A DNA stretch of 64,000 nucleotides from Minisyncoccota bacterium (GCA_041666305.1 JBAYHD010000002.1:64684-128683); one strand, 5' to 3'. Positions 4,036 to 60,886 are shown, counted from the first letter of the stretch. Notes: generated from the letters alone by a model not told the origin. Made by a program: numbers and translations.

Positions 4036-4595
4036 ACTGCTTGCGCGATAAGGCCGATCAACACAATGCCTGCGAAATTGAAGACAAAAGAAAGAGGGAT
4101 GAACCATGCCGTCTGTATCCTTGAAAAACCAAAGAGGCCGATTCCGAGCTCGTCAGGAAGTGGCGAAGCGATGATCAGACCTCCTACAAACAGCGATACC
4201 CAGCGGAACAGCCGCAGTTTGAAGAGCGCTCGGACTCTTTTACCTACGTGTCGATGCCCGAACAGTTCAAGTAAGTGTCCGGAAAATCTGTCCCGAATGA
4301 ACCGGAAGATGATCAGATCGCCCACGACTGCCCCTGCCGCTCCGAAGAGAGCCGCCGGCAATATCGCTTGCACGTGAGCAATCTCGCCGAATGCGGCTAT
4401 CGCGGGCGCTGTGGTGAAAATCGAGGTGAAGAACAGTCCTGCGATAAAGCTTCCGACAAACCCAAATCCTTCCGTCGACGCCAAAATCTCCACAACGATA
4501 CCTGTCCTGACCATGAATGCGGCGAACACGATACTCACGGCAATGATCAGTATGTCATGCAGAAGAAAACCATTCGTGCGGCTCGTGGCATTCAT
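4032..4595 (-). CDS. multi-pass membrane protein (DedA/TVP38-like, tentative)
   Basis: hydrophobic, 5-6 predicted TM helices, R/K-rich loop; family assignment weak. Confidence 0.5.
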   Translation of the reverse strand: MNATSRTNGFLLHDILIIAVSIVFAAFMVRTGIVVEILASTEGFGFVGSFIAGLFFTSIFTTAPAIAAFGEIAHVQAILPAALFGAAGAVVGDLIIFRFIRDRFSGHLLELFGHRHVGKRVRALFKLRLFRWVSLFVGGLIIASPLPDELGIGLFGFSRIQTAWFIPLSFVFNFAGIVLIGLIAQAV

Positions 4596-5920: not shown

Positions 5921-6838
5921 ATGATATTCCGGTACGAGTATCCAGGCGGTGTGTGGGTCGACCTTGAACAACCGAGCGCCGACGAAATACGGCGCGTTGC
6001 GCGGGAATTTTCCATCAATGAGCGGCTTGAGGCTGAACTCTTGTCCCCCACCCCGTCGCCACTTGTCGCCGGCGACGAAACTGTCGCGCTTCTCGTCCTT
6101 CATTTCCCCGTGCAGGAAGACGGTGGCGGGACGCCGAAGAGCCAGGAGATAGATTTCATCGTTGGCAATCGATTCATCGTGACCGTGCGCTATGAGGTCA
6201 TCGTGCCACTCCATCACTTGAAGAAACTTCTCGAGACGGAAAAAATCGTTTCCAATCACGATGGCATTTCCACCGACGTCTTACTCGAGATACTGTTCGC
6301 ACATCTCTACACGTCCGTGCGCGACCATACCGATCACGTAGCAGCGAATCTCGAACGAGTGGAACGGCAGATGTTCGACGGGCGCGAGCGCAACACGGTG
6401 CGGCTTATTTCCAACATCAGCCGAGAATTTCTGCATTTAGAAGCGGCGCTTGCGAATCAAGAGGAGTCACTTGGGCGTTTCCTACACGTTCTCGCTGAGC
6501 GCAGTCTCTTCGGCGCATCTTTTGTCGAACGTTCTATTCGCATTGAGGCAGAACGCGCACAAGTCGCGCACTTTATCAAGACACACCGCGCGATAGCGAG
6601 TGAGATGCGTGAGACCAATATTGCCCTTCTTGAGGCGCGTCAGAATGAGATTATGAAAACACTGACACTTATAACGGTCATCATACTACCTCTTGAACTC
6701 ATTGCCGTCACGCTCGGTATACACGCTCAAGGAGCGCCACTTGAAGAAAACCCTGATGCATTTCTCATCATCATGACCATCATGTTCAGTCTCGTCGTTC
6801 TTATGGTGCTTTTCTTCGCTAAAAAACGCTGGCTCTAG
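5921..6838 (+). CDS. corA: CorA-family Mg2+/Co2+ transporter
   Basis: cytoplasmic alpha/beta domain plus two C-terminal TM helices; GMN-like loop degenerate. Confidence 0.65.
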   Translation: MIFRYEYPGGVWVDLEQPSADEIRRVAREFSINERLEAELLSPTPSPLVAGDETVALLVLHFPVQEDGGGTPKSQEIDFIVGNRFIVTVRYEVIVPLHHLKKLLETEKIVSNHDGISTDVLLEILFAHLYTSVRDHTDHVAANLERVERQMFDGRERNTVRLISNISREFLHLEAALANQEESLGRFLHVLAERSLFGASFVERSIRIEAERAQVAHFIKTHRAIASEMRETNIALLEARQNEIMKTLTLITVIILPLELIAVTLGIHAQGAPLEENPDAFLIIMTIMFSLVVLMVLFFAKKRWL

Positions 6839-6841
6839 TCT

Positions 6842-6982
6842 ATGCCCGGTAGGACAACATGGCATCGTGTCTTTTACTCCAACTGCGATTTGCATGATAT
6901 ACAATGACAATGCACTATGAATTCAATGACTCAATTTGAAAGGCGTGACACAGAGAGTAATGCCATGTTGTCCTAACCGGGT

Positions 6983-6984
<2 letters not shown>
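6842..6984. repeat. ERIC/MITE-like intergenic element copy 1 (21-bp terminal inverted repeats, ~95-bp variable core)
   Basis: left arm cccggtaggacaacatggcat, right arm atgccatgttgtcctaaccggg (reverse complement with 1-nt bulge); second copy near 50305. Confidence 0.8.
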
Positions 6985-8443
<1,459 letters not shown>

Positions 8444-11087: not shown

Positions 11088-11149
11088 GTCAATCCTCCTG
11101 GTGGGTTCAAGTCTGCCGCGACTATACCACGGGTGATTATTCACTCCCA

Positions 11150-11174
11150 ATGAAAGGTTTACGAAACCTTTCAT
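11150..11174. repeat. REP copy 1, 25-bp palindrome atgaaaggtttacgaaacctttcat (inverted orientation)
   Basis: near-perfect palindrome; the asymmetric centre (tacg vs cgta) defines orientation. Confidence 0.85.
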
Positions 11175-11183
11175 GTATACTGG

Positions 11184-11879
11184 TTGTTGATGGAACTCTG
11201 GCACGTTCTTAATCGGGGTGTTGAGGGACGCAATCTATTTCTCGATACGCAGGATTACGCTCGCTTTGTACACGATCTCTATGAATTCAACGACACCGCA
11301 TTGGCTACCAATCGCTGGCGTTCCTTTGACCTGTCAGGAATGAAAGGTTTCGTAAACCTTTCATTCCGAGAAACGCGGAACTTGCTGGTGGATGTTCATG
11401 GGTGGGTGTTGATGAAGAATCACTACCATTTGCTGTTATCAGAACGAGTCGAAGGTGGTATTAGTCTCTTTCTACGCAAGCTGAACGTAGGGTATGCCAA
11501 CTACTTCAATCAAAGATACGGACGGAAAGGAACCCTCTTCCAGGGCCGGACGAAGAAGATTTTGATTAATCGTCAGGCGCACTTTCTGTATATCCTTCAC
11601 TATATTCATCTCAACCCGCTTGATTATCTACCGGGTGCCGATGATTGGCGCATACGGAGTAAAAGCGTCATTAAGAATGCGGGTGAAGCATTCAATTTTC
11701 TTGACTCGTACCGCTGGAGCAGTTATTTAGACTATATCGGGCAAAAGAACTTCCCTTCTATTCTCAAAACTTCCCTCTTCAAAGGATCTCTCGGCGATTA
11801 TCGGGAATCGCTTCATGAGTATCTTAACGACGCCGAACAAGACAGCGATAGTAGTATGGAACAGTCGATTTTGGAATGA
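11184..11879 (+). CDS. REP-associated tyrosine transposase (RAYT, IS200/IS605 Y1 HUH family)
   Basis: 'HVLNRG..GRNLF' N-terminal strand, HUH motif 'NHYHLLL', 'GYANYFNQRYGRKGTLFQGR' catalytic-Tyr helix region, RAYT hallmark 'YRWSSY'. Confidence 0.8.
   Translation: MLMELWHVLNRGVEGRNLFLDTQDYARFVHDLYEFNDTALATNRWRSFDLSGMKGFVNLSFRETRNLLVDVHGWVLMKNHYHLLLSERVEGGISLFLRKLNVGYANYFNQRYGRKGTLFQGRTKKILINRQAHFLYILHYIHLNPLDYLPGADDWRIRSKSVIKNAGEAFNFLDSYRWSSYLDYIGQKNFPSILKTSLFKGSLGDYRESLHEYLNDAEQDSDSSMEQSILE
11340..11364. repeat. REP copy 2 (forward orientation), in-frame inside the RAYT ORF
   Basis: atgaaaggtttcgtaaacctttcat, extended to the 31-bp palindrome ggaatgaaagg...cctttcattcc. Confidence 0.85.
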
Positions 11880-31896: not shown

Positions 31897-33650
31897 GGAG
31901 TGGTGGCTTGCGATGCGGTACTGGTACTCGTAGTAAAGCCGCGATCAGGGGGCACCGCGTAATAGTCTATGAGGAAATGGACAAGGTCAAGGAAGCTCGA
32001 GGAAAGCGTGTCGGAAGCGTAGGTAACGTGCTGGGGATCATTGGTATAGAGCAGAATGATAAAGCGCGGATTGTAGGACGGGAAGAATCCGACGAAAGAG
32101 TGGAAATAACGGTCGGTATAGTACCCGCCCTGACCGTTCGTGAGCTGGGCGGTTCCGGTCTTCGCCGCAACCGACATCGTGGGGATCATCGCTTTGCCGT
32201 TCTGGAGTTTTTCATCAACGACCGCCGTCATCATCTCGGTCGTCTCACGTGCGGCTGTTGCGGAAAATACCGGCGTCGTCTGACCCCAATCAATAGCGCG
32301 TTCAATGCCGGAATTCAGGCGCACGGCGCTTGCAAGATGTGGTTCCACCATCACTCCGCCGTTCGCTATCGCGCCCAGGGCACGGATCATTTGCAACGGC
32401 GTCACGGCAATGCCCTGTCCGTATGCCGCAGTATCGTAGCCGACCTGCTGGGGCTTCGTGAGGTTACTGAGCAAGGCGCCGCTTTCGTTCGGCAGATCAA
32501 TGCCGGTCTTCTGACCGAAGAGTTTGGTGAAATACGCCCGAAAATTATCCTGCCCCAACTGCGTCGCCACCCACGCGGCGCCGATGTTGAGCGATTGCAC
32601 GATGATCTGCTTCATAGGAATGACGCCGCGCGGTTTAAGATCCCAATTGCAGATCGTCGCCGTGTTGACCGTGATGCACCCAGTATCTTTGTACGTCGTT
32701 TGCGGCGTAATGACTCCCGCATCAAGCCCCGACGTCATAGTGAGCGGCTTCATGATGGAACCGAATTCGTGCACGTGCTCCACAAATGGATTCCCAAGGA
32801 TTGCAGGATCGACATTTTGCAGGACGTTCGCGTCGTAAGACGGATTGCTGGCAATAGCAAGGATAGCGCCCGTACGGGGATCCATGATGATCCCGCCTGA
32901 TTCTTTGCTGGCATATTTCTGGCTCACCTTCGCGAGGTCGTCTTCAAGATGCGTCTGCACCTCCGGTTCGATAGTCGTCACGATATCGCCCTCGCGCGCA
33001 TCTTTCGCCGCGACGAGCATATTGCCGACATTGGAAAAAAGCTCCGCGAAGAAATTCCTATACAGCGAATCCCCGGAACGCAGAAGGGTCTCATCATAGG
33101 TAGCCTCAAGCCCCGTCTGCCCCGCAAGCGTATCGCCCAAGCCATAAGACACGATGCCGATGGATTGCGCCGCAAGCGTTCTTCCCGGGTACTGCCGCCA
33201 ACGTTCCCGAAGCACCTGCACGCCGGTTATATTTTTATCCGAAAGGGACTGCCCTGCTTCTTCGGAAAGATGGTGCGCAACTTCAATGTACACCTGGTTC
33301 TTTTTTGCGGCCGCCGTAAGAAATGCGTCGCGCGAGATCGCATCGGGAGCGACGTTCGTTATGGCCGCATACGCGTTTTCAGGATTCCCAAGCGTTTGCG
33401 GATTTATGGCAACAAGGAATCCGGTGGAGAGCGTCGCCGCAGATATGAGCGTTTCGTCCTTTCGCGTAAAATAAATAGCGCCTCGATCAAAGAGACCGCC
33501 GCCGCCGGAAGCGAATTGTTTATCCGCTTTTTGCGCATACTCGTCCCCATGAATGATTTGTATAAAATAGAGGCGCACAATGATCATGAGCGCCACGAGT
33601 ATGACGAACGCGAGAACGAGGCGTATACGTGAGCGGAACTGCGCGCGCAT
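31893..33650 (-). CDS. ftsI: penicillin-binding protein / peptidoglycan D,D-transpeptidase FtsI-like
   Basis: N-terminal TM, dimerisation domain, transpeptidase motifs 'SIMK', 'KTGTAQ'. Confidence 0.85.
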   Translation of the reverse strand: MRAQFRSRIRLVLAFVILVALMIIVRLYFIQIIHGDEYAQKADKQFASGGGGLFDRGAIYFTRKDETLISAATLSTGFLVAINPQTLGNPENAYAAITNVAPDAISRDAFLTAAAKKNQVYIEVAHHLSEEAGQSLSDKNITGVQVLRERWRQYPGRTLAAQSIGIVSYGLGDTLAGQTGLEATYDETLLRSGDSLYRNFFAELFSNVGNMLVAAKDAREGDIVTTIEPEVQTHLEDDLAKVSQKYASKESGGIIMDPRTGAILAIASNPSYDANVLQNVDPAILGNPFVEHVHEFGSIMKPLTMTSGLDAGVITPQTTYKDTGCITVNTATICNWDLKPRGVIPMKQIIVQSLNIGAAWVATQLGQDNFRAYFTKLFGQKTGIDLPNESGALLSNLTKPQQVGYDTAAYGQGIAVTPLQMIRALGAIANGGVMVEPHLASAVRLNSGIERAIDWGQTTPVFSATAARETTEMMTAVVDEKLQNGKAMIPTMSVAAKTGTAQLTNGQGGYYTDRYFHSFVGFFPSYNPRFIILLYTNDPQHVTYASDTLSSSFLDLVHFLIDYYAVPPDRGFTTSTSTASQATTP

Positions 33651-39829: not shown

Positions 39830-40599
39830 GTAAGCGAGGACGGATTCATCGTCGGCATGATGCGAAGCGTAATACCCGGTGCAGACGGATCACTGTCAAT
39901 GCGCACGACCGTACCGATCGGCAACATGCCGGGCCCCGGAGCAAAGACCGTGTCTCCGACGGTAACCCCTGCGGAGCGCGACAATGACGCGCTCATTGCG
40001 CCCCCTCCCGCGCCAAAAATGTTAAGCGGCATATCCGCACTTTTCACCCAGCCGTGCGTCACGGTGCCGAATGAAGAAAAGAGCGTCGCACGAGAATACT
40101 CTGCCGTGACCGACGTGACGGCGCCGAGCGGCACACCGCCTTCACCGAAGACTTCCTGACCGAGCATAACGCCGGAACTTGAGCCGACGGAAAGTACGAT
40201 AGTGTCGTACGGACTCACGGGCGGATGCGCCACAACACCGGCGAGGATTCCGGGGTTTGCGGTTTTTTGCGAAGCCGAGGCGCCGATGAGCGCATTCACG
40301 CTTGCTTCCTTTTGCAGAAGTGCTTGATTCTCGCTCGCAAGCGCGCTGTTCTCTTCCGTCAGCCGTTCATTCCTCGCGGCAAGCGCCGCTACGTCGCTAA
40401 AACTATTGAAAAATGTGTGGCTCTTCAGGGCGATGACATTTGAAACGCTGAATGCCGGAGCGAACGCCTGCAAAAAAAAGTTCGGCGCAACGAGCCGCAC
40501 AAGAAGCACAAGCGCGGCGAATACGAGCGCACCAGTGCCCCACGAGATGCTCGCGGACGATAAGAGCGCGTTACGCTTCGCTAAGAATGTCTTCTTCAT
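39760..40599 (-). CDS. mreC: rod shape-determining protein MreC
   Basis: N-terminal TM, coiled coil 'ERLTEENSALASENQALLQKEA', beta-rich C-terminal domains. Confidence 0.75.
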   Translation of the reverse strand: MKKTFLAKRNALLSSASISWGTGALVFAALVLLVRLVAPNFFLQAFAPAFSVSNVIALKSHTFFNSFSDVAALAARNERLTEENSALASENQALLQKEASVNALIGASASQKTANPGILAGVVAHPPVSPYDTIVLSVGSSSGVMLGQEVFGEGGVPLGAVTSVTAEYSRATLFSSFGTVTHGWVKSADMPLNIFGAGGGAMSASLSRSAGVTVGDTVFAPGPGMLPIGTVVRIDSDPSAPGITLRIMPTMNPSSLTWVLLRDTGASFRSAFSLATSTL

Positions 40600-41623
40600 C
40601 AACAAAGAAATCCGAGAAGGGTTCCGGGTCCTCGGTGACGATGCCTGCACCGCGCACCACTGCGGTGAGCGGGTCCGGTGCGACTCTCACCGGTACGCCA
40701 AGCATCTTTGCAAGTATTTGCGGCAGACCGCGCAGCAGGGCTCCGCCGCCAAAAACGGTGACTCCCTGCTGAAGCACGTCCGAGAGAAGTTCCGGCGGCG
40801 TCGCTTCAATGACTTCTTTCATGGAGTCCATAAGTGCGTCCAAGGACGGCGCGATGGCTTCGCGAATGTGAGAATCGGTGAGTGTTATTTCTCGCGGGAG
40901 TCCGGTCGCAAAATCGCGGCCGCGTACGGTCCGCGACAAGGTCTCATGAAGCGGTATCACGGCGCCTATCGCTATCTTCACGTCTTCTGCGGTACGCTCG
41001 CCGATACCGAGCTTGAACTCGCTCCGCACATATTCAATGATGTTGTCATTAAAGCGATCCCCGGCAACATGCGAGCTCTTTGACGCAACGACACCCTTGA
41101 GCGCGATGACCGCGATATCGGTGGTGCCACCGCCGATATCGAGCACCATCGTGCCGACCGCCTCATGCACCGGCAGTTTTGCACCAATGGCGCCTGCGAC
41201 TGGCTCTTCCAGGATGATGGCCTCGCGTGCACCGGCATTCTTCGCGGCATCGCGTACGGCGCGGCTCTGCACGTTGGTAACGCCGGTCGGCACGCCGATG
41301 ACGACGCGCGGACCGAAAAGCCGCACGCGTCCGTTCTGCGCTTTGTTGATGAGATAGGTCAGTAATTCCTCGGTCACTTCGAAATCCGAAATGACGCCGT
41401 GGCTCAAGGGGCGCACCACGCGGATGTGCGCGGGAGTCTTGCCGAGCATCGTCTTCGCTTCCTTCCCCACCGCCACGACCTGATGCGTCTTATCGTTCAC
41501 GGCGACCGCCGAGGGTTCGTTGATGACGACACCCTTCCCGCGCACGTATACGAGCGTGTTAGTCGTCCCGAGGTCTATTGCGATGTCGTTACTGAAGAGC
41601 AGATTTTTTGAAAACCGGGCCAT
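40571..41623 (-). CDS. mreB: rod shape-determining actin homologue MreB
   Basis: 'IAIDLGTTNTLVYV', 'DIGGGTTDIA' actin-fold phosphate motifs. Confidence 0.9.
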   Translation of the reverse strand: MARFSKNLLFSNDIAIDLGTTNTLVYVRGKGVVINEPSAVAVNDKTHQVVAVGKEAKTMLGKTPAHIRVVRPLSHGVISDFEVTEELLTYLINKAQNGRVRLFGPRVVIGVPTGVTNVQSRAVRDAAKNAGAREAIILEEPVAGAIGAKLPVHEAVGTMVLDIGGGTTDIAVIALKGVVASKSSHVAGDRFNDNIIEYVRSEFKLGIGERTAEDVKIAIGAVIPLHETLSRTVRGRDFATGLPREITLTDSHIREAIAPSLDALMDSMKEVIEATPPELLSDVLQQGVTVFGGGALLRGLPQILAKMLGVPVRVAPDPLTAVVRGAGIVTEDPEPFSDFFVDEEDILSEA

Positions 41624-41634
41624 GGGGATAGGCG

Positions 41635-42885
41635 CTAGGCGCTAGGCGCTAGGCGGGACAAGAGTTCGGAACGTGGTTTTTTCTGCACCGTGCCGGTCGC
41701 GCGATTCACCACCTCGAACTCGCCAGTGGCGACGGCGTCCTTCCCCACCACGATGCGCTTCGGAACGCCGAGTAGGTCGCTATCCGCGAATTTCTCGCCG
41801 GCACGAGCATCGCGATCGTCATACAAAACTTCCACGCCGGTTTTTATCAAATCATCGTAAAGAACATCCGCTGTTTTAGAAATTTCGTCGCCGTCTTTCC
41901 CAAGCGACACGAGGTGCACCGAAAATGGCGCGACGCTCTCGGGCCACACCAGCCCTTTTGCATCGGAGAGCACCTCCACAATAGCGCCGACGAGGCGCGA
42001 GGGGCCGATGCCGTAGCAGCCCATCACGACCGGATGTTTCTTCCCCTCCTTGTCCAGATATGAGAGACCGAGCGGTTCAGAAAAACGCGTTCCGAGCTTG
42101 AAAATATTTCCGACTTCCACGGCCGTTTCCTCTTTGAGTTCGCCGCGGTCTATCTCAAGGTCCGCAAGGACCTCATCGGTTAGCACTTCTTTATTGATAG
42201 CAACACCCTTTGCGCGGGAGACATAAATCGTATCCTCGCCACTCTCGCAGAGTGTCTGAAATTCGTGGCTGTATTTGGAAAAAGCGCCACCTGAAGCGAA
42301 TGTCATGAAGGTGCGGTCACCGAGTCCGACGCGCGCGAAGACATTCTTATATGCCTGTGCCGCCTGTTCATAAAAGGTATCCAGATCGGCCTGGTCAGCG
42401 TGGAACGAATACATGTCCTTCATCAAGAATTCCCGTCCGCGCATCACGCCGGACTTCGCGCGTTCTTCGTTCCTGAATTTCGTTTGTATCTGATACGTGG
42501 AGAACGGAAGGTCGCGGTATGAACTCACATTCTGAGAAGCAAGGTTTGTGATGGGCTCTTCGTGCGTCCACCCGAGACCCGTCTCGCCCGCCGTCTTGAG
42601 CATCGTCTTGAACCAAACATCCTGCTCCCAACGATTTGTCTTTTTCCAGAGTTCGGCATTCTGGAGCGCCGACATGAGAAGTTCCTGTCCGCCGATTGCG
42701 TTCATCTCTTCTCGAATGACGCGAACGACATTGTTCAGTACGCGGAGCCCGAGCGGGAGAAATGAATACACGCCGGCCGCTTCTTTATGCACGAAGCCGG
42801 CACGAATCAGGAGCTGGGCGTTCTTCGCGACCTCGTCGGCCGGCGCCTCGCGGCGAGTTTTGGTGAAGAGCTGGGACTGTCTCAT
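41635..42885 (-). CDS. proS: prolyl-tRNA synthetase (short form without editing insertion)
   Basis: N-terminus aligns with ProRS 'M..SQL...T.RE.PADAE..S..L..RAG...K...G.Y..LP.G.RV'; class II core and anticodon-binding domain; 416 aa. Confidence 0.8.
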   Translation of the reverse strand: MRQSQLFTKTRREAPADEVAKNAQLLIRAGFVHKEAAGVYSFLPLGLRVLNNVVRVIREEMNAIGGQELLMSALQNAELWKKTNRWEQDVWFKTMLKTAGETGLGWTHEEPITNLASQNVSSYRDLPFSTYQIQTKFRNEERAKSGVMRGREFLMKDMYSFHADQADLDTFYEQAAQAYKNVFARVGLGDRTFMTFASGGAFSKYSHEFQTLCESGEDTIYVSRAKGVAINKEVLTDEVLADLEIDRGELKEETAVEVGNIFKLGTRFSEPLGLSYLDKEGKKHPVVMGCYGIGPSRLVGAIVEVLSDAKGLVWPESVAPFSVHLVSLGKDGDEISKTADVLYDDLIKTGVEVLYDDRDARAGEKFADSDLLGVPKRIVVGKDAVATGEFEVVNRATGTVQKKPRSELLSRLAPSA

Positions 42886-42964
42886 AGGCGACAGTATACC
42901 CTGTACTGAAGCAGAGCTCTAGTACGGGGTATATGCCCACCCCACCCACTCGGCAAAAGGGCGC

Positions 42965-45253: not shown

Positions 45254-45416
45254 CAGTAATGCGATGTGAGGATTTTGGAGACTCTCGGAGGCGGAGCAGC
45301 ATGGCGAATTGCGGCGCCGGAGGGCAGCTGCGCCGCAATTTGCGACGCCGAGAGTGAGCGCGTCCCGCGGCAGGGCGGGACGACGCGTGCTCCAAAATTC
45401 TTACATCGCATTACTG
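45254..45416. repeat. ~160-bp multi-hairpin palindromic intergenic element between frr and rseP
   Basis: outer arms cagtaatgcgatgtgaggattttggag / ctccaaaattcttacatcgcattactg enclosing two perfect hairpins (attgcggcgc..gcgccgcaat; cgtcccgc..gcgggacg). Confidence 0.6.
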
Positions 45417-49781: not shown

Positions 49782-50315
49782 ATGAAAGAAATCGTGCAAG
49801 ACGGCGCGAAGGTGCTCCGCGATATCGCTAAGCCGGTGCCGAAGGAACTGTTCGGCTCAGTGAAGCTCGCACGCATAATTGTCGACATGACCGAGGCGCT
49901 CGACCAAGAACTCGAGGGCGTCGCGCTCGCTGCGCCACAGATCGATGTTCCCCTTCGGATTTTCATCGTGCGCAAAGATCGTACTCTGCCTCCTCCGGCA
50001 CAGGTTCCGGAAGGGGCGCCGCTTCCTCCTCCCCTGCCGGCGGAAGTGGAGGTATATATCAATCCGGAGATTGTTAAGACGTCTCGCCGACGCGCACGCG
50101 CGGACGAGGGCTGCCTTTCGGTTCGCGGTGTCTATGGCACCACGAAACGGCATGAGCGCGTTACCGTTCGCGCGCAACACCCGGACGGTAAATCATTTCA
50201 GCGCGGCGGCGGCGGCATCATGGCGCAAATCTTTGAGCATGAAATTGACCACTTGAATGGCATTCTTTTCATAGACCACGCCGAGCACCTCATCGAGATA
50301 CATCATGCCCAGTAG
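49782..50315 (+). CDS. def: peptide deformylase (with ~30-aa Pro-rich insertion)
   Basis: motifs 'GVALAAPQI', 'EGCLSV', 'HEIDHLNG'. Confidence 0.9.
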   Translation: MKEIVQDGAKVLRDIAKPVPKELFGSVKLARIIVDMTEALDQELEGVALAAPQIDVPLRIFIVRKDRTLPPPAQVPEGAPLPPPLPAEVEVYINPEIVKTSRRRARADEGCLSVRGVYGTTKRHERVTVRAQHPDGKSFQRGGGGIMAQIFEHEIDHLNGILFIDHAEHLIEIHHAQ

Positions 50316-50445
50316 GACAACATGGCATCATGTCTTTGCCGCTTATAAACGGACGCGGTACAACTAGAATTATGAACACAACGAGGCAACCGCAGGCAAC
50401 TACCTCGGACACGCAGGGCAATGCCATGTTGTCCTCACTGGGCAT
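50305..50445. repeat. ERIC/MITE-like intergenic element copy 2
   Basis: arms gcccagtaggacaacatggcat / atgccatgttgtcctcactgggc; the def stop TAG lies in the left arm and the candidate fmt ATG abuts the right arm. Confidence 0.8.
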
Positions 50446-51307
50446 GCCCCAACCGCATAACCCAGAACATTCGCAGACGAATGAACGGGCGCAGAGCCGT
50501 TTCGCATACTTCGGCACGCCGAACGTTGCAAGCGAAACGCTTGCAAGGCTCATTGAGCATGGTTTCATTCCCGAACTCGTCGTGACGTCACCGGACGCGC
50601 CGAGGGACCGCGGCCACGTGCTCACGCCATCGCCCACGAAAACGCTTGCGCTCTCGCGCGGCATCAAGGTGCTCACGCCGGCGCGTCTCGACACAGAGAC
50701 GATAGCAGAGATACGCGCGTGCAAATGCGATTACGCGGTCGTCGTTGCGTACGGCAAAATATTTCCTGAAGAATTGATCCAATCATTTCCGCTCGGCGTG
50801 CTGAATGTGCATTACTCGCTCTTGCCAAAATATCGCGGCGCAACGCCGCTTGAAGCCGCACTCCTCGCAGGAGAAAAAGAGACCGGCGTGACCATACAAA
50901 AGATGGTGAAAGAATTGGACGCTGGCGACATCATTGAGCAGAAAGCGACCGAAATAGAATCCGACGAAACCGCGCGCGAACTGAGGCCTCGACTTATCAT
51001 CATAGGCGCTGAACTATTGGCTGAGGCACTTCCTCGTTTCGCGGGCGGTTTTATAACACCGGTCCCGCAAGATGATTCAAAAGCGACGCGCGCGGGAAAA
51101 TTAAAAAAGGAAGACGGTCTCCTCTCATTCGACGCACCGGCCGAAGAGAATTGGAACAAATATCGCGCCTATGCCGACAGTATCGGTACGTATTTTTTTG
51201 AGAATGGAAAACGAAAGAAAATAACAAAAGCGTCGTTTACGAACGGAAAGTTCGTCGTTGAACGCGTCATTCCCGAGGGAAGAAACGAAACGGATTATCG
51301 CGGCTAG
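50443..51307 (+). CDS. fmt: methionyl-tRNA formyltransferase
   Basis: 'RFAYFGTPNVA' N-terminus, 'HYSLLPKYRGA' formyltransferase motif, C-terminal domain; the ORF-track start at 50330 lies inside the repeat and is probably too long. Confidence 0.85.
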
Positions 51308-52380: not shown

Positions 52381-52411
52381 GAAACCGCCCTCAGAAGGGC
52401 GTTTCTTTTTG
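52381..52411. terminator. bidirectional rho-independent terminator downstream of tRNA-Asn
   Basis: gaaaccgccct-caga-agggcgtttc flanked by A-run and T-run. Confidence 0.7.
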
Positions 52412-52419
52412 ATCCTCGG

Positions 52420-52714
52420 CTCCGCGGGTAGGATTCGAACCTACGACCAACTCGTTACATCTTGTCCGCTATTACTAACGGGATGGACTATATCATCACC
52501 GGTTCTCGGTGCGAGGCGCTTCGACCTCTCGGTCTACTCCCTTGCGGGATAGTCTCTGAACCTTTCTCGAAACATTTCGGGACTTGGCTGCTGATTGCCC
52601 GCGTCTTTCTCGTTTGGGTTTCCAGCAATTCACCTCGTTCTTCATTCCCGAATTCCTTCGGGAAGCTGCGTTTCTTGGCCACAGCGAGCCGCTCTACCAC
52701 TGAGCTACCGCGGA
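52420..52714 (-). tRNA. tRNA-Asn (anticodon GUU) interrupted by a group I intron in the anticodon loop
   Basis: exons 52681..52714 and 52420..52457 join to UCCGCGGUAGCUCAGUGGUAGAGCGGCUCGCUGU|UAACGAGUUGGUCGUAGGUUCGAAUCCUACCCGCGGAG, a complete cloverleaf that parallels E. coli tRNA-Asn and has discriminator G. Confidence 0.8.
52458..52680 (-). ncRNA. group I intron (223 nt, ORF-less)
   Basis: conserved elements in order: P 'aauugcuggaaa', Q 'aaucagcag', R 'guucagagacua', S 'auauagucc'; 5' exon ends in U pairing with an internal guide GCAGC (P1); terminal omega-G. Confidence 0.8.
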
Positions 52715-52766
52715 AGGTAAACACCGATTAATGTAACCGGCTTATGATCAGTATACACAGACATAT

Positions 52767-58065: not shown

Positions 58066-59787
58066 TTACTTGGCGGATTGGGTCCGCTTCCGTAAGTTGA
58101 ACGCCGGGGAGACGTGGAACAAGAACGAGAGGGGGCGCAAAGCTTCATCGAAGGCATATCGCAGTACGTCTTCGTTTTCGGCCGGCATCGCTTTGAGCGT
58201 GAGCACATACACCGCAACCGTCTCCTGCAATTGCATGACCTTGCGGTCCGACACATCGCAGGCGACCCAGATGGGATGATTGACGTTGAAGTGCAAGATA
58301 CCCTGACGGGCATCGAGTTCCCAAAGCCTATCGGAGCCATCCATCGCAATGTACGAGAACTGCAGCCCGACGCTGTCGTTCTTCACCAGCATCCGCTGCT
58401 TGCCGCGAGGGCCGGCAACGGTATACGGGTGGTGATTGGGTTTATCCTCGCGCGGCTTTTTGTGCTCGCCAGAACTCCCACCGCCTCCTTCTTCTCCCTT
58501 CGGGGTAAACCCTTCATGGGTGGAGATAGAGGATTCGGTCTGTTGACCGGTCACACTGCCCCTTACAGGCTTCGTGTGACCGATACCCACCGTGCCGAGT
58601 TTGAAGTCCTGCAGCACCAAACGGATGTCGTTGAAAGCCGGGTCGCGCAGCATCGCTTCGATCTCTCGTAGCGACTGTGTGCCGAGCTCCTGATACCGCT
58701 GGTCGCGCCGGGCCTCTTTCACGTCCTTAAGGTGATCGGCTCCGTGTTTATGGAACCATGCCTCAAGTGCGGTACAGAAGCCGACGAATGCATCGTCCTT
58801 CTCGAACGTTTTACGCGTCGAATGGAGCTTCACCTTCTCGCCGACGATCTCGCCTTCGAACATGCCGGAGCGTAATGCAGCCGACACTTCGTCCGAGAGC
58901 AAGCTGTCAGCCGAGCGAGCGAATAGTCCAAAACTGAAGCGGTAGTCGTTATCGAGCTCGCCGACGATGACCTTGCCGTTCTGGCCTTTAGTCGTCTTCG
59001 GTGCAAGATACATGCGGAAGACGACATTGCCGGCATCGCGGTCGGTAATGACCGTTTCGCCGAGCGAACGCCCGGTGAAGAGCTTCGCACGAATACCGTC
59101 GCGTTCTTCGAGTGTGCCGTCCTCATTGGTGAACCTGATGCTGAGGACAGTCTTGTTGCGGCGCATGGCTGCGCCGAAACGCTCGAGAATAGCATCCACA
59201 AGCGCGTCGATCGACGTGACTCTCGAGATGATCCTGTCGCTCGAATAGCGGACAATATTCACCTCAGTGCGCCATGCGATGCTCGTCATTCCCCGCTTCA
59301 CGTTCAACCCTTTGCGGGAAAACACGAGGTCTGGCCGAGGCCGCCGCGGAACGAAGACGCTCTGTTGCTGCCTCCGGATATCCTCGGTGACAAAAGTCCA
59401 TTCCATGTACCCATCCTCGATGCCACGCGCACAAGAGATGAAAGTGGAGGAATGGCATTTGTCGAGCGGAGAGATGAGTCCGATGCCGAAGCGACCGAGC
59501 TTGTTCAGCTCCTTCTGCGACAGGCAGACCTGTTGCAGCGCTTCTTCGAATTTCTCACGGCTCACGCCGTCGCCGTCATCGCGGATAGCGATGTGGCGGG
59601 TCTTGCGGTTAAGCACGACCGAGATGTTCTTTGCGTTCGCGTCGATCGCGTTCTGGACCTGTTCCAGGATGACGTCGAGTACGGTCGGATAATCCGATGC
59701 AACTCGACAGAATGCTTCTCCCATGTGGAACCCGAGAAGCGAATGCGTGCTCTTCGGCGGTCTTGCGTTGAGTATTGCGTTCATCAC
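58066..59787 (-). CDS. GHKL (Bergerat-fold, HATPase_c_3-like) ATPase with ~420-aa uncharacterised C-terminal region
   Basis: N box 'EQVQNAIDA', G1 'IRDDGDGVS', G2 'GRFGIGL'; not MutL, GyrB, Hsp90 or a histidine kinase (no H-box, no dimerisation domain). Confidence 0.7.
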   Translation of the reverse strand: MMNAILNARPPKSTHSLLGFHMGEAFCRVASDYPTVLDVILEQVQNAIDANAKNISVVLNRKTRHIAIRDDGDGVSREKFEEALQQVCLSQKELNKLGRFGIGLISPLDKCHSSTFISCARGIEDGYMEWTFVTEDIRRQQQSVFVPRRPRPDLVFSRKGLNVKRGMTSIAWRTEVNIVRYSSDRIISRVTSIDALVDAILERFGAAMRRNKTVLSIRFTNEDGTLEERDGIRAKLFTGRSLGETVITDRDAGNVVFRMYLAPKTTKGQNGKVIVGELDNDYRFSFGLFARSADSLLSDEVSAALRSGMFEGEIVGEKVKLHSTRKTFEKDDAFVGFCTALEAWFHKHGADHLKDVKEARRDQRYQELGTQSLREIEAMLRDPAFNDIRLVLQDFKLGTVGIGHTKPVRGSVTGQQTESSISTHEGFTPKGEEGGGGSSGEHKKPREDKPNHHPYTVAGPRGKQRMLVKNDSVGLQFSYIAMDGSDRLWELDARQGILHFNVNHPIWVACDVSDRKVMQLQETVAVYVLTLKAMPAENEDVLRYAFDEALRPLSFLFHVSPAFNLRKRTQSAK

Positions 59788-60590
59788 TATCTCCCTTTCT
59801 GGTTGCTGGTTGCTGCTGGATTTGAGTGCATCTCGCGCGCCCGCTCACCGCATAAACGGTAGAGCAGGTTCGCCAGGGTGAACACGCTATTGTTGCCCGC
59901 CAATTCGCGAACCTGCGTTCGCTCTTCGGCAGTGAACCCGTCGGAGCTGACCATCTGCGCGAGCGGTATCAGCGCCTTCACCGACCCCGCGAGGGATGCG
60001 ATGATCGCTTCATGCTCGCTTTGCGAAGACTTCTTCTGCAAAGGAGCCGCCGCACGCACGGGAACGTTCGCTTCTACGCGCGCCGGAGGCGCTTGCAGTT
60101 TGTGGTCGCTCGTACTTCCGGTGATGTTGACCCGAACCGTACCCCGTTGTTTCTCGGGAATCTGATCTTTGTAGAGCTCAGCGAGTGTCGCAAACTTCTG
60201 CATTCTTTTATTCGGGACACTCTGCTTGCCGTGGAATACACGGTACAGTGAGTCGGTACCGACCCTTCCTTCTTTCGGATAGCCAACGAGGTCGACTATC
60301 TCGGTAAGAGAAAGGATGCGGAATGCATATATTTGCGCGACGTCACGTATCGGCGGCGATAACACCTCAAGCTCCGTGATCTCATAACCATGGAGTTCGA
60401 GATAGAACATCAGCCGCGTGAGCGATTCTCCCATGGGCTTCACTCTCCCGTTAAACCAGCGACGCACCGTTTGTTCCCCGACGCCGGTAAATGCGGCAAC
60501 TTTCTTGTGCTTGTCGGTTGGGGCTTCCCCGGGCACTTGTGCGAAATGCGTGAGGCATTTCGCAAAGCTTCCTTCGAAGATTGTTGTCAT
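59787..60590 (-). CDS. XRE-like helix-turn-helix protein, partner of the GHKL ATPase
   Basis: 'VAAFTGVGEQTVRRWFNGRVKPMGESLTRLMFYL' HTH; 1-nt overlap with the downstream gene. Confidence 0.6.
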   Translation of the reverse strand: MTTIFEGSFAKCLTHFAQVPGEAPTDKHKKVAAFTGVGEQTVRRWFNGRVKPMGESLTRLMFYLELHGYEITELEVLSPPIRDVAQIYAFRILSLTEIVDLVGYPKEGRVGTDSLYRVFHGKQSVPNKRMQKFATLAELYKDQIPEKQRGTVRVNITGSTSDHKLQAPPARVEANVPVRAAAPLQKKSSQSEHEAIIASLAGSVKALIPLAQMVSSDGFTAEERTQVRELAGNNSVFTLANLLYRLCGERAREMHSNPAATSNQKGR

Positions 60591-60886
60591 GGCGTGTTCC
60601 TTTCTATGTGCTGTTTGCTCGTGGGTATGACCGGAAAAGCCAAAGTGGCCCGCCAGCCATGTCGGAAAAGTGCAACATTGCGAAGCTCAACAACTTGACC
60701 GTGATTCAATCTCTGACCTTTGCCATGCCAGTTAGACAAGGAAAAGGTGATGCTGTCGCTTTTTTTGAGCTCGCCGTAATCTTCTGTCGAATAGGCAACG
60801 GCGTAGCTCCCCTCCGCTGATTGGCGATTGACGATGTTTTTGACCGTCGCACGCACAGGCGGATTTGAACCTTGCTTTTTACTCAT
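60587..60886 (-). CDS. small protein, first gene of the three-gene operon
   Basis: 99-aa ORF with 4-nt (ATGA-type) overlap with the HTH gene. Confidence 0.4.
   Translation of the reverse strand: MSKKQGSNPPVRATVKNIVNRQSAEGSYAVAYSTEDYGELKKSDSITFSLSNWHGKGQRLNHGQVVELRNVALFRHGWRATLAFPVIPTSKQHIERNTP

Follow-up and report, generated by a model that had tools for sequence, protein, structure and literature searches.

The stretch of DNA analysed here (the window; 64,000 nucleotides from Minisyncoccota bacterium, GCA_041666305.1 JBAYHD010000002.1:64684-128683) carries the genes for peptide deformylase (def, 49782-50315, plus strand) and methionyl-tRNA formyltransferase (fmt, 50444-51307 from its ancestral start, plus strand), and an inverted-repeat element lies across their junction. 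An earlier note, made from the sequence alone, had taken this element (copy 2) for a second copy of one found between corA and cysS (copy 1), bridging the stop codon of def and the start codon of fmt. In this study, we describe copy 2 as an insertion, relate it to a family of elements dispersed among Patescibacteria, and weigh the ways in which such elements could persist at the start codons where they are almost always found.

Copy 2 between def and fmt

A Pfam search confirmed Def, Fmt, CorA and CysS as the neighbours of the two elements, and comparison with homologues further supports fmt. The motif GGACAACATGGCAT occurs exactly four times in the window (at 6852 and 50315, and on the minus strand at 6960 and 50421), against an average of 0.38 in shuffled sequence, with none of 100 shuffles reaching four. 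These four sites form two inverted repeats whose arms are 92-94 nt apart. Copy 2, on the plus strand, begins with a left target-site duplication, CATG at 50304-50307, where the match to our covariance model also begins; its ATG (50305-50307) marks the ancestral start position of fmt and still lies within the end of def. There follow the left terminal inverted repeat CCCAGTAGGACAACATGGCAT (50308-50328), the variable centre (50329-50420), the right terminal inverted repeat ATGCCATGTTGTCCTCACTGGG (50421-50442) and the right duplication, CATG at 50443-50446, which holds the ancestral start codon of fmt (ATG, 50444-50446). The full stem pairs 50304-50328 with 50421-50446, giving about 25 pairs with one bulged base in the right arm, and the RNA is predicted to fold at -63 kcal/mol (z = -6.7), a fold that leaves the fmt ATG half-buried at the base of the helix. 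The shared core, the paired arms and the covariance model all bear out the kinship of the two copies proposed in the earlier note. Its placement of the def stop in the left arm (TAG, 50313-50315) holds as well, and the fmt ATG is the final triplet of the right arm.

Both neighbouring genes now depend on the element for one of their ends. The last two codons and the stop of def are supplied by it, so that the protein ends in ...IHHAQ* at the left-arm TAG in place of the ancestral ...IHHAPTA*. From the left ATG at 50305, a small upstream open reading frame (uORF1) runs for 20 codons to a TAG at 50365-50367 in the centre. Four nucleotides beyond this stop, the ATG at 50372 opens 24 codons in frame with fmt, and the element's reading frame is fused to the gene because the in-frame TAA usual in the right arm is TCA in this copy. 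The public Fmt annotation (P0001, 311 aa, 'Candidatus Paceibacterota bacterium') begins at 50372, inside the element, and thereby gains 24 element-encoded residues. Fmt homologues that lack the element begin with MPQPH..., at the position of 50444, which is therefore the ancestral start. It is not the only plausible one, as had been suggested, since the in-frame ATGs at 50426, 50372 and 50330 open into fmt as well.

The event that produced this arrangement can be read from element-free relatives. At four loci (L047-L050), whose Fmt proteins (P0003, P0004, P0010, P0018) are 72-83% identical to that of the window and whose gene order is murA, small open reading frame (ORF), def, fmt, hpf, the element is absent, and a 17-nt overlap between def and fmt surrounds one lone CATG (...gagatacatcATGccccaaccgcaTAA). 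The window has this same arrangement plus 139 bp, namely the element itself (50308-50442) and a second CATG, the 4-bp target duplication. The window, for its part, provides the empty site for both elements of locus L020, one between rsmH and ftsL (tcaTATGccgcgTAA in the window) and the other between ftsL and a gene for a penicillin-binding protein (PBP) (TAAcgggccATGcgcgcgcag; PBP ATG at 33650, minus strand). Empty sites are thus available at three independent loci, with 4 bp (YATG) duplicated, and copy 2 is an insertion with a 4-bp target duplication. As a separate observation on this gene pair, many of the more distantly related Patescibacteria (P0017, P0031 and about 40 others) encode def and fmt as a single protein of about 447 aa (Pep_deformylase plus Formyl_trans_N/C).

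Copy 1 (6841-6985, plus strand; 122.7 bits with the covariance model) is built in the same way, with the element proper at 6845-6981 between TATG duplications at 6841-6844 and 6982-6985. The stop codon of corA (6836-6838) lies 3 nt before its left ATG, and the cysS ATG at 6983 lies within the right duplication, in agreement with the parallel drawn in the earlier note between cysS and fmt. Inside the element, uORF1 (6842-6907, plus strand) has 21 codons and ends with TGA at 6905-6907, and uORF2 (6917-6976, plus strand) runs from ATG 6917 to a TAA (6974-6976) that lies 6 nt short of the cysS ATG. The centres of the two copies had been called unrelated. Overall they are indeed unalignable (47% identity, equal to background); both nevertheless share TATGAA(C), which holds the ATG of the second small ORF. 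Across the window the covariance model recognised these two copies only, with 122.7 and 102 bits on the plus strand and 61-65 bits on the minus strand.

A dispersed family at start codons

Scanning one genome per species for the pattern ACAACATGGCAT N75-105 ATGCCATGTTGT yielded ten further elements in four metagenome-assembled genomes of Patescibacteria, five of them on a single 594-kb contig, and a scan of metagenomes added 36 further loci with a paired core. Three of the latter proved to be non-members or doubtful. The match in L026 is due to chance; that in L041 (26-171) is a different, long and near-perfect palindrome on a GC-rich (64%) metagenome contig, sharing only the 11-nt core (CAACATGGCAT / ATGCCATGTTG); and L015 is a divergent relative that ends without an ATG. 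A covariance model (R1, from alignment A2) built on 31 copies recovered three additional divergent copies among the loci, in which the core itself is changed with compensation (for example CACC/GGTG in L019 and CAAA/TTTAG in L042). This brings the total to about 49 copies, all on Patescibacteria contigs; judged by these sequences, the host group is Patescibacteria genomes of the Paceibacteria/Kaiserbacteria type. Rfam gave no match at the gathering threshold over the whole window, and when both copies were searched with E-values up to 10 it returned one chance-level match only (Guanidine-III, 18 bits against a threshold of 36).

Family members have the ends CCCGGTAGGACAACATGGCAT...ATGCCATGTTGTCCTAACCGGG, bounded by YATG repeats, and measure 135-146 bp from ATG to ATG. 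Their terminal inverted repeats of about 25 bp contain one bulge, and 96.6% of cells are paired over the 31 copies. Two subfamilies, A (CCCGGTAGGA...) and B (CCCCGACACA...), differ in their outer stems and interiors, while the 11-nt core is nearly invariant across both. Copies are single units, never tandem, with two in the 64-kb window, five on the 594-kb contig and two within 1.1 kb in L040. Between subgroups the identity of the centres (42-62%) equals background. The centres of the cysS copies (window copy 1 and L043), in contrast, are 70-82% identical to those of copies at an exonuclease gene (L007, L027, L029, L030), and the two L040 copies, 785 nt apart, share centres that are 92% identical. 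Because copies at different genes have centre sequence in common, the family spreads by copying.

The position of the copies is as constant as their ends. In 46 of about 49, the ATG at the right end forms the last three bases and opens a long ORF, always in one orientation relative to the gene, and all copies except L003 lie at a gene start in that orientation. The downstream genes include ligA, ftsX, tdk, rpe, pyrG, rsmH, dnaB, clpB, cysS and fmt, together with genes for a penicillin-binding protein, an exonuclease, a response regulator and membrane proteins. With genes of so many kinds, the link to the translation machinery that the earlier note saw in cysS and fmt is incidental. Nearly all elements read YATG|CCC...GGG|YATG. 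Where this flank differs, both sides differ together with the core unaltered, CAAG/CAAG in L003 and AATA/AATA in L004, and such a matching change on both flanks is the signature of target-site duplication. The AATA copy (L004, 244-393) lies one nucleotide after a GTG start and behind a TAGAGT -10 box; the CAAG copy (L003, 4151-4290) is the only one clearly away from a start, lying antisense between a PBP gene and greA.

The window contains 40 Y-ATG start codons and 106 other intergenic YATG sites, so that about 27% of insertions would be expected at starts if only those in coding regions were purged, compared with about 96% observed. Either selection has been stronger than this simple purging model allows, or the transposase itself prefers start regions. 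Of the two, we tentatively infer selection rather than targeting to lie behind the bias.

Ahead of the left ATG, a TAnnnT hexamer ending 5-10 nt upstream is present in 17 of 41 distinct upstream flanks, against a background of 4.6%, and copies behind such a hexamer probably begin at transcript position +1. The remaining copies, including both in the window, are found at operon junctions. These flanks agree with the gene starts of the window itself, where many genes have a -10 hexamer of the TATACT/TATAGT type 6-9 nt before their ATG and no Shine-Dalgarno sequence, e.g. those starting at 4595, 5883, 8458, 11190, 13679, 14000, 37020, 42885, 46685, 46718, 49782 and 62703; GGAGG-like sites occur at some operon-internal genes (55751, 58066-60886). 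To judge from these start regions, the host organism evidently relies widely on leaderless mRNAs.

Reading path, stem and competing explanations

A reading frame is kept open through the element far more often than composition would predict. Among 39 copies, 24 have a single uninterrupted ORF from the left ATG, of 42-48 codons and most often exactly 43 (never more than 48), against 9.7 ± 2.3 with shuffled centres (maximum 15). If a ribosome that meets a stop may resume at a start codon lying between 4 nt upstream and 10 nt downstream of it (the relay rule), chains of ORFs reach the host ATG in 36 of the 39 copies, compared with 16.9 ± 2.6 for shuffled centres (maximum 24). The frames also end in characteristic ways: in subfamily A with a TAA 6 nt before the host ATG (...SNAMLS*), in subfamily B with a TAG 4 nt before it (...ETMPCCV*), and in others with a TGA that overlaps it (ATGA). 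Every copy of subfamily B is open for 43 codons despite unalignable centres, and where a single ORF runs to the TAA of the right arm, the ATG-to-ATG spacings are 135, 138, 141 and 144, in steps of whole codons. Most of the remaining copies have two ORFs joined by an overlap (ATGA or TAATG) or a short gap; in six of them the sequence CACTATGAAC is kept, where the stop of ORF1 (TGA) and the start of ORF2 (ATG) overlap. In L004, partly by reading the sequence, the chain can be followed from a GTG-initiated ORF through TAATG into ORF2 and on, as an in-frame fusion, into a UvrD-like gene.

Open frames of this length in so many copies could suggest that the element carries a functional small-protein gene (about 43 aa, MPGRTTWH...SNAMLS). 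We regard this as highly improbable, given that many copies split the frame and that conservation of the peptide is limited to residues encoded by the arms, the middle 25 or so residues being unrelated between copies; nor did the 43-aa ORF have any homologue in the protein collection searched. Translatability, not a protein, appears to be what is kept.

[quoted passage not shown] After insertion, the left ATG would keep the initiation context of the gene, whether this is the +1 position at a leaderless promoter or the final part of an upstream gene, and the right ATG would stay joined to the host coding sequence. Ribosomes would start at the left ATG, translate across the element in one ORF or in two coupled ORFs, terminate a few nucleotides from the host ATG and re-initiate there, with some copies instead being read through as in-frame fusions. 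In copy 2, def would end in the left arm, uORF1 would stop at 50365-50367, and the ATG at 50372 would reopen the frame into fmt. Insertions at start codons would then be near-neutral, while at other places a gene would be disrupted or an operon would be left with a 25-bp hairpin that is not translated. By making start-codon insertion harmless, such a relay would explain why essentially only start-codon insertions persist. That ribosomes actually use this path is suggested by the arrangement of the frames. Ribosome hopping from the left to the right AUG, in the manner of T4 gene 60, was also considered; it is still conceivable but became unnecessary once the ORF path was found.

Many of the same observations would suit a selfish MITE that does without any relay, an explanation we hold to be rather unlikely. 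Here ribosomes would initiate internally and directly at the right ATG of the host gene once the hairpin opens transiently or is cleaved, e.g. by RNase III, which Patescibacteria retain (PMC12641178); the continuity of the ORFs would be a by-product of the arms and of composition, and the positional bias would come from a transposase that recognises starts. Terminal inverted repeats, target duplication and empty sites suit any MITE, and the L004 insertion at AATA, one nucleotide after a leaderless-type GTG start, hints at targeting that is positional and not purely based on sequence. With their CCC...GGG termini and a defined duplication of 4 bp, the elements bring to mind ends of the piggyBac/IS1380 type (PMC7351741, PMC10813416), and a GGAG-like motif stands in the right arm of subfamily A, 7 nt before an ATG. 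There is, on the other hand, no Shine-Dalgarno sequence at a usable distance from the host ATG; and the excess of copies in which the host ATG is reached over shuffled centres, the length differences in multiples of three and the stop/start overlaps conserved within centres, CACTATGAAC among them, are hard to attribute to a by-product of arms and composition.

Compensatory changes keep the stem paired, column 9/156, for instance, being G-C in 13, A-U in 5 and C-G in 5 copies, and pairs with double changes number 13 against 6.6 in shuffles, none of 500 shuffles reaching 13. Subfamily A has two more covarying 5-bp helices, GTGTC/GACAC and GCTCC/GGAGC. These lie in crossed order (a b a' b'), as a pseudoknot or as pairings that alternate. 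In subfamily B their place is taken by a local hairpin, GGCATTGT-AGAA-ACAATGCC, in competition with the uppermost part of the stem.

Such features might be expected of a dedicated cis-regulatory 5'-leader RNA (a thermosensor, a sensor of ligand or protein, or a self-cleaving RNA) that has spread as a module, and they are joined by the nearly invariant core, by the start codon half-buried at the base of the helix, and by covariance model scores that are about twice as high on the plus strand as on the minus strand. We nevertheless consider this improbable. The element has no Rfam match at any threshold, its downstream genes share no function, its inner structure differs between subfamilies A and B, and close relatives do without it at the same genes. 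There is, moreover, no excess of G·U over A·C mismatches (2 vs 8 outside the G·U pair derived from the duplication). With no strand signal of this kind, the importance of the stem could lie at the level of DNA and not of RNA; it may have a part in transposition as DNA, in the expression of genes as RNA, or in both. A long GC-containing stem between co-directional genes could likewise be taken for an ordinary intrinsic terminator or attenuator hairpin at operon junctions. This we find scarcely credible, as no T-run follows the stem, the scan found no forward terminator, the loop is about 90 nt long, and the element lies upstream of genes that need expression and includes their start codon.

The relay reading, too, has evidence to contend with. 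The absence of a strand signal from the G·U and A·C counts does not speak for a role of the stem in RNA, and the relay alone leaves the paired stem of about 25 bp, the invariant core and the crossed helices of subfamily A unexplained. With a 5'-terminal ATG enclosed in a long helix, leaderless initiation ought to be impeded, unless ribosomes load while the RNA is still being transcribed. The copies are mutually related, so that the shuffle statistics overstate their independence, with an effect that is still large. Three copies fail the relay rule, namely L001, L010 and window copy 1; the last would pass only if the restart used the ATG 9 nt past the stop, where the rule picks a nearer one, this 9-nt gap between ORF1 and ORF2 reflecting one extra base compared with L043. 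Neither the window nor the loci yielded a transposase or an autonomous parent with these ends, the collection scans covering gaps that varied by at most 30 nt, and there were no solo arms in the 321 kb of sequence examined.

Translation of the upstream gene interacting with the stem, an idea of the earlier note, is compatible with the relay. A bolder version would have the element actively seek start sites and use its stem as a kinetic lock that couples transcription and translation at dozens of housekeeping genes. A YATG-specific transposase, possibly piggyBac/IS1380-like, would be drawn to the melted +1 of leaderless promoters; a ribosome on the 5'-terminal AUG during RNA synthesis would keep the message open and the gene expressed, and with no ribosome the hairpin would close, both AUGs would be buried and the mRNA would be silenced or cut. 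We consider this unlikely; if true, it would make the family a mobile transcription-translation coupler in a reduced genome.

These elements illustrate how a transposon can survive in a genome with almost no spare DNA, by occupying the single position, a start codon, at which the duplicated ATG and the read-through frame would keep both neighbours working. They also have practical application. Start codons of affected genes are miscalled, as in the public fmt model, and the ends of upstream genes (def, rsmH) are supplied by the element, which bears on annotation; the presence or absence of a copy offers a compact, sequence-defined marker for strain-level polymorphism; and the family lends itself to testing how termination-reinitiation and leaderless initiation work naturally in uncultured Patescibacteria.

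Other repeats in the window and known systems

Several further repeats and structured features occur in the window. A hairpin at 42893-42936 (minus strand; TATACCCCGTACT..AGTACAGGGTATA) gave a weak covariance match (18 bits, E = 0.01). It resembles the outer stem only, with TATA replacing TATG, and ends 8 nt before the proS ATG (42885, minus strand), its right half overlapping the proS -10 box; perhaps it is what an internal deletion has left of a family member. A foldback-like structure at 45254-45416, whose 27-nt arms (CAGTAATGCGATGTGAGGATTTTGGAG and its complement) are 109 nt apart, encloses a GC-rich inverted repeat (45299-45348); its sequence shows no relation to that of the family, and the loci examined lack it. 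The 25-nt palindrome ATGAAAGGTTT(A/C)CG(A/T)AAACCTTTCAT occurs twice, at 11144-11174 and 11340-11370. One occurrence supplies the start (MKGFV...) of a minus-strand NT5C-like gene, and the other lies in frame inside a weak IS200-like ORF (11190-11876, Y1_Tnp), where it encodes GMKGFVNLSF; the palindrome may represent another type of insert that carries an ATG. A short tandem repeat, cctagcgcctagcgcctagcgcctatcccc (about 41624-41655, minus strand), stands directly 5' of the ATG of the gene at 40571-41623. Finally, a group I intron (52410-52735, minus strand; Rfam RF00028, 78.5 bits) interrupts an apparent tRNA gene, with exons TCCGCGGTAGCTCAGTGGTAGAGCGGCTCGCT... and ...GGTCGTAGGTTCGAATCCTACCCGCGGA, that ARAGORN did not call.

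The earlier note had likened the element to MITEs and to the enterobacterial repetitive intergenic consensus (ERIC). The first likeness stands: the family is small, has no transposase gene, and shows terminal inverted repeats of about 25 bp, target duplication with empty sites, and dispersed copies, as is usual for bacterial MITEs. The second does not, given the unconserved centre, the duplication of YATG and a host among the Patescibacteria; ERIC has a conserved consensus of about 127 bp including a central core and belongs to enterobacteria. The target duplicated by Correia and ERIC elements is TA, and their interiors are conserved. They are found in either orientation and at various places between genes, unlike the present family with its single orientation and its start codons, and they are not known to follow a start-codon rule or to carry a relay ORF. 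The Correia elements of Neisseria (NEMIS) and ERIC are 100-155 bp long, have terminal inverted repeats and are co-transcribed with their neighbours, and their folded RNA may be a substrate of RNase III or alter the fate of the mRNA in other ways (PMC10969869), so that they resemble the family in their MITE nature and in a possible link to RNase III. A Correia-like internal promoter was dropped, as no forward sigma-70-type promoter lies inside either window copy. Start codons are not mentioned in the 2024 review of prokaryotic MITEs (PMC10969869).

A likeness to piggyBac/IS1380 elements lies in the CCC...GGG termini and the 4-bp duplication of a preferred tetranucleotide, and is confined to three terminal bases and the length of the duplication; the target is YATG, not the TTAA of piggyBac. 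IS1380 transposases form the prokaryotic outgroup in piggyBac phylogenies (PMC10813416), and piggyBac chemistry permits seamless excision (PMC7351741). Mobilisation of this type is a lead only. Three other systems were rejected. The arms are not self-palindromic, as they would be for REP/REPIN-RAYT, and the Y1_Tnp ORF at 11190-11876 (21.3 bits, cut-off 23) is flanked by the unrelated palindrome described above. For guide targeting of the IS200/IS605 type, the tetranucleotide at the right end varies together with the left flank while the core is unchanged. As for integron attC sites, on our reading the core misfits RYYYAAC/GTTRRRY and the stem runs beyond the core. Closer in behaviour are the Rickettsia palindromic elements (RPEs), of about 150 bp, which persist in or next to coding sequence because they are translatable (PMC10969869). 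RPEs are in-frame fusions inside ORFs, in contrast to our family, which sits at the start codon and mostly has its own stop before the host ATG; a minority of copies, window copy 2 among them, are fused in frame and in this resemble RPEs.

In our literature search, which turned up no account of this family or of a start-codon-specific MITE, the nearest precedent was the mycobacterial interspersed repetitive units (MIRUs), reportedly treated by Supply et al. in 1997. Relative to transcription, MIRUs lie in a single orientation, and leaderless mRNAs are plentiful in mycobacteria. In the account given in PMC3184786, MIRUs are small, dispersed intergenic units in operons, with filled and empty sites and with tetranucleotide direct repeats when filled, and their ORFs overlap the adjacent genes at their ends. 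Operon location, tetranucleotide repeats and an ORF that is translated through are thus features in common, the last being represented here by the 36 of 39 copies with a predicted path to the host ATG. The differences are equally clear. There is no sequence similarity and the phylum is different, and for MIRUs neither duplication of the start codon nor near-exclusive location there is reported, both of which the present family has. MIRUs are 40-100 bp long, often tandem and without a terminal hairpin of about 25 bp, whereas the elements described here are single units, each with such a hairpin.

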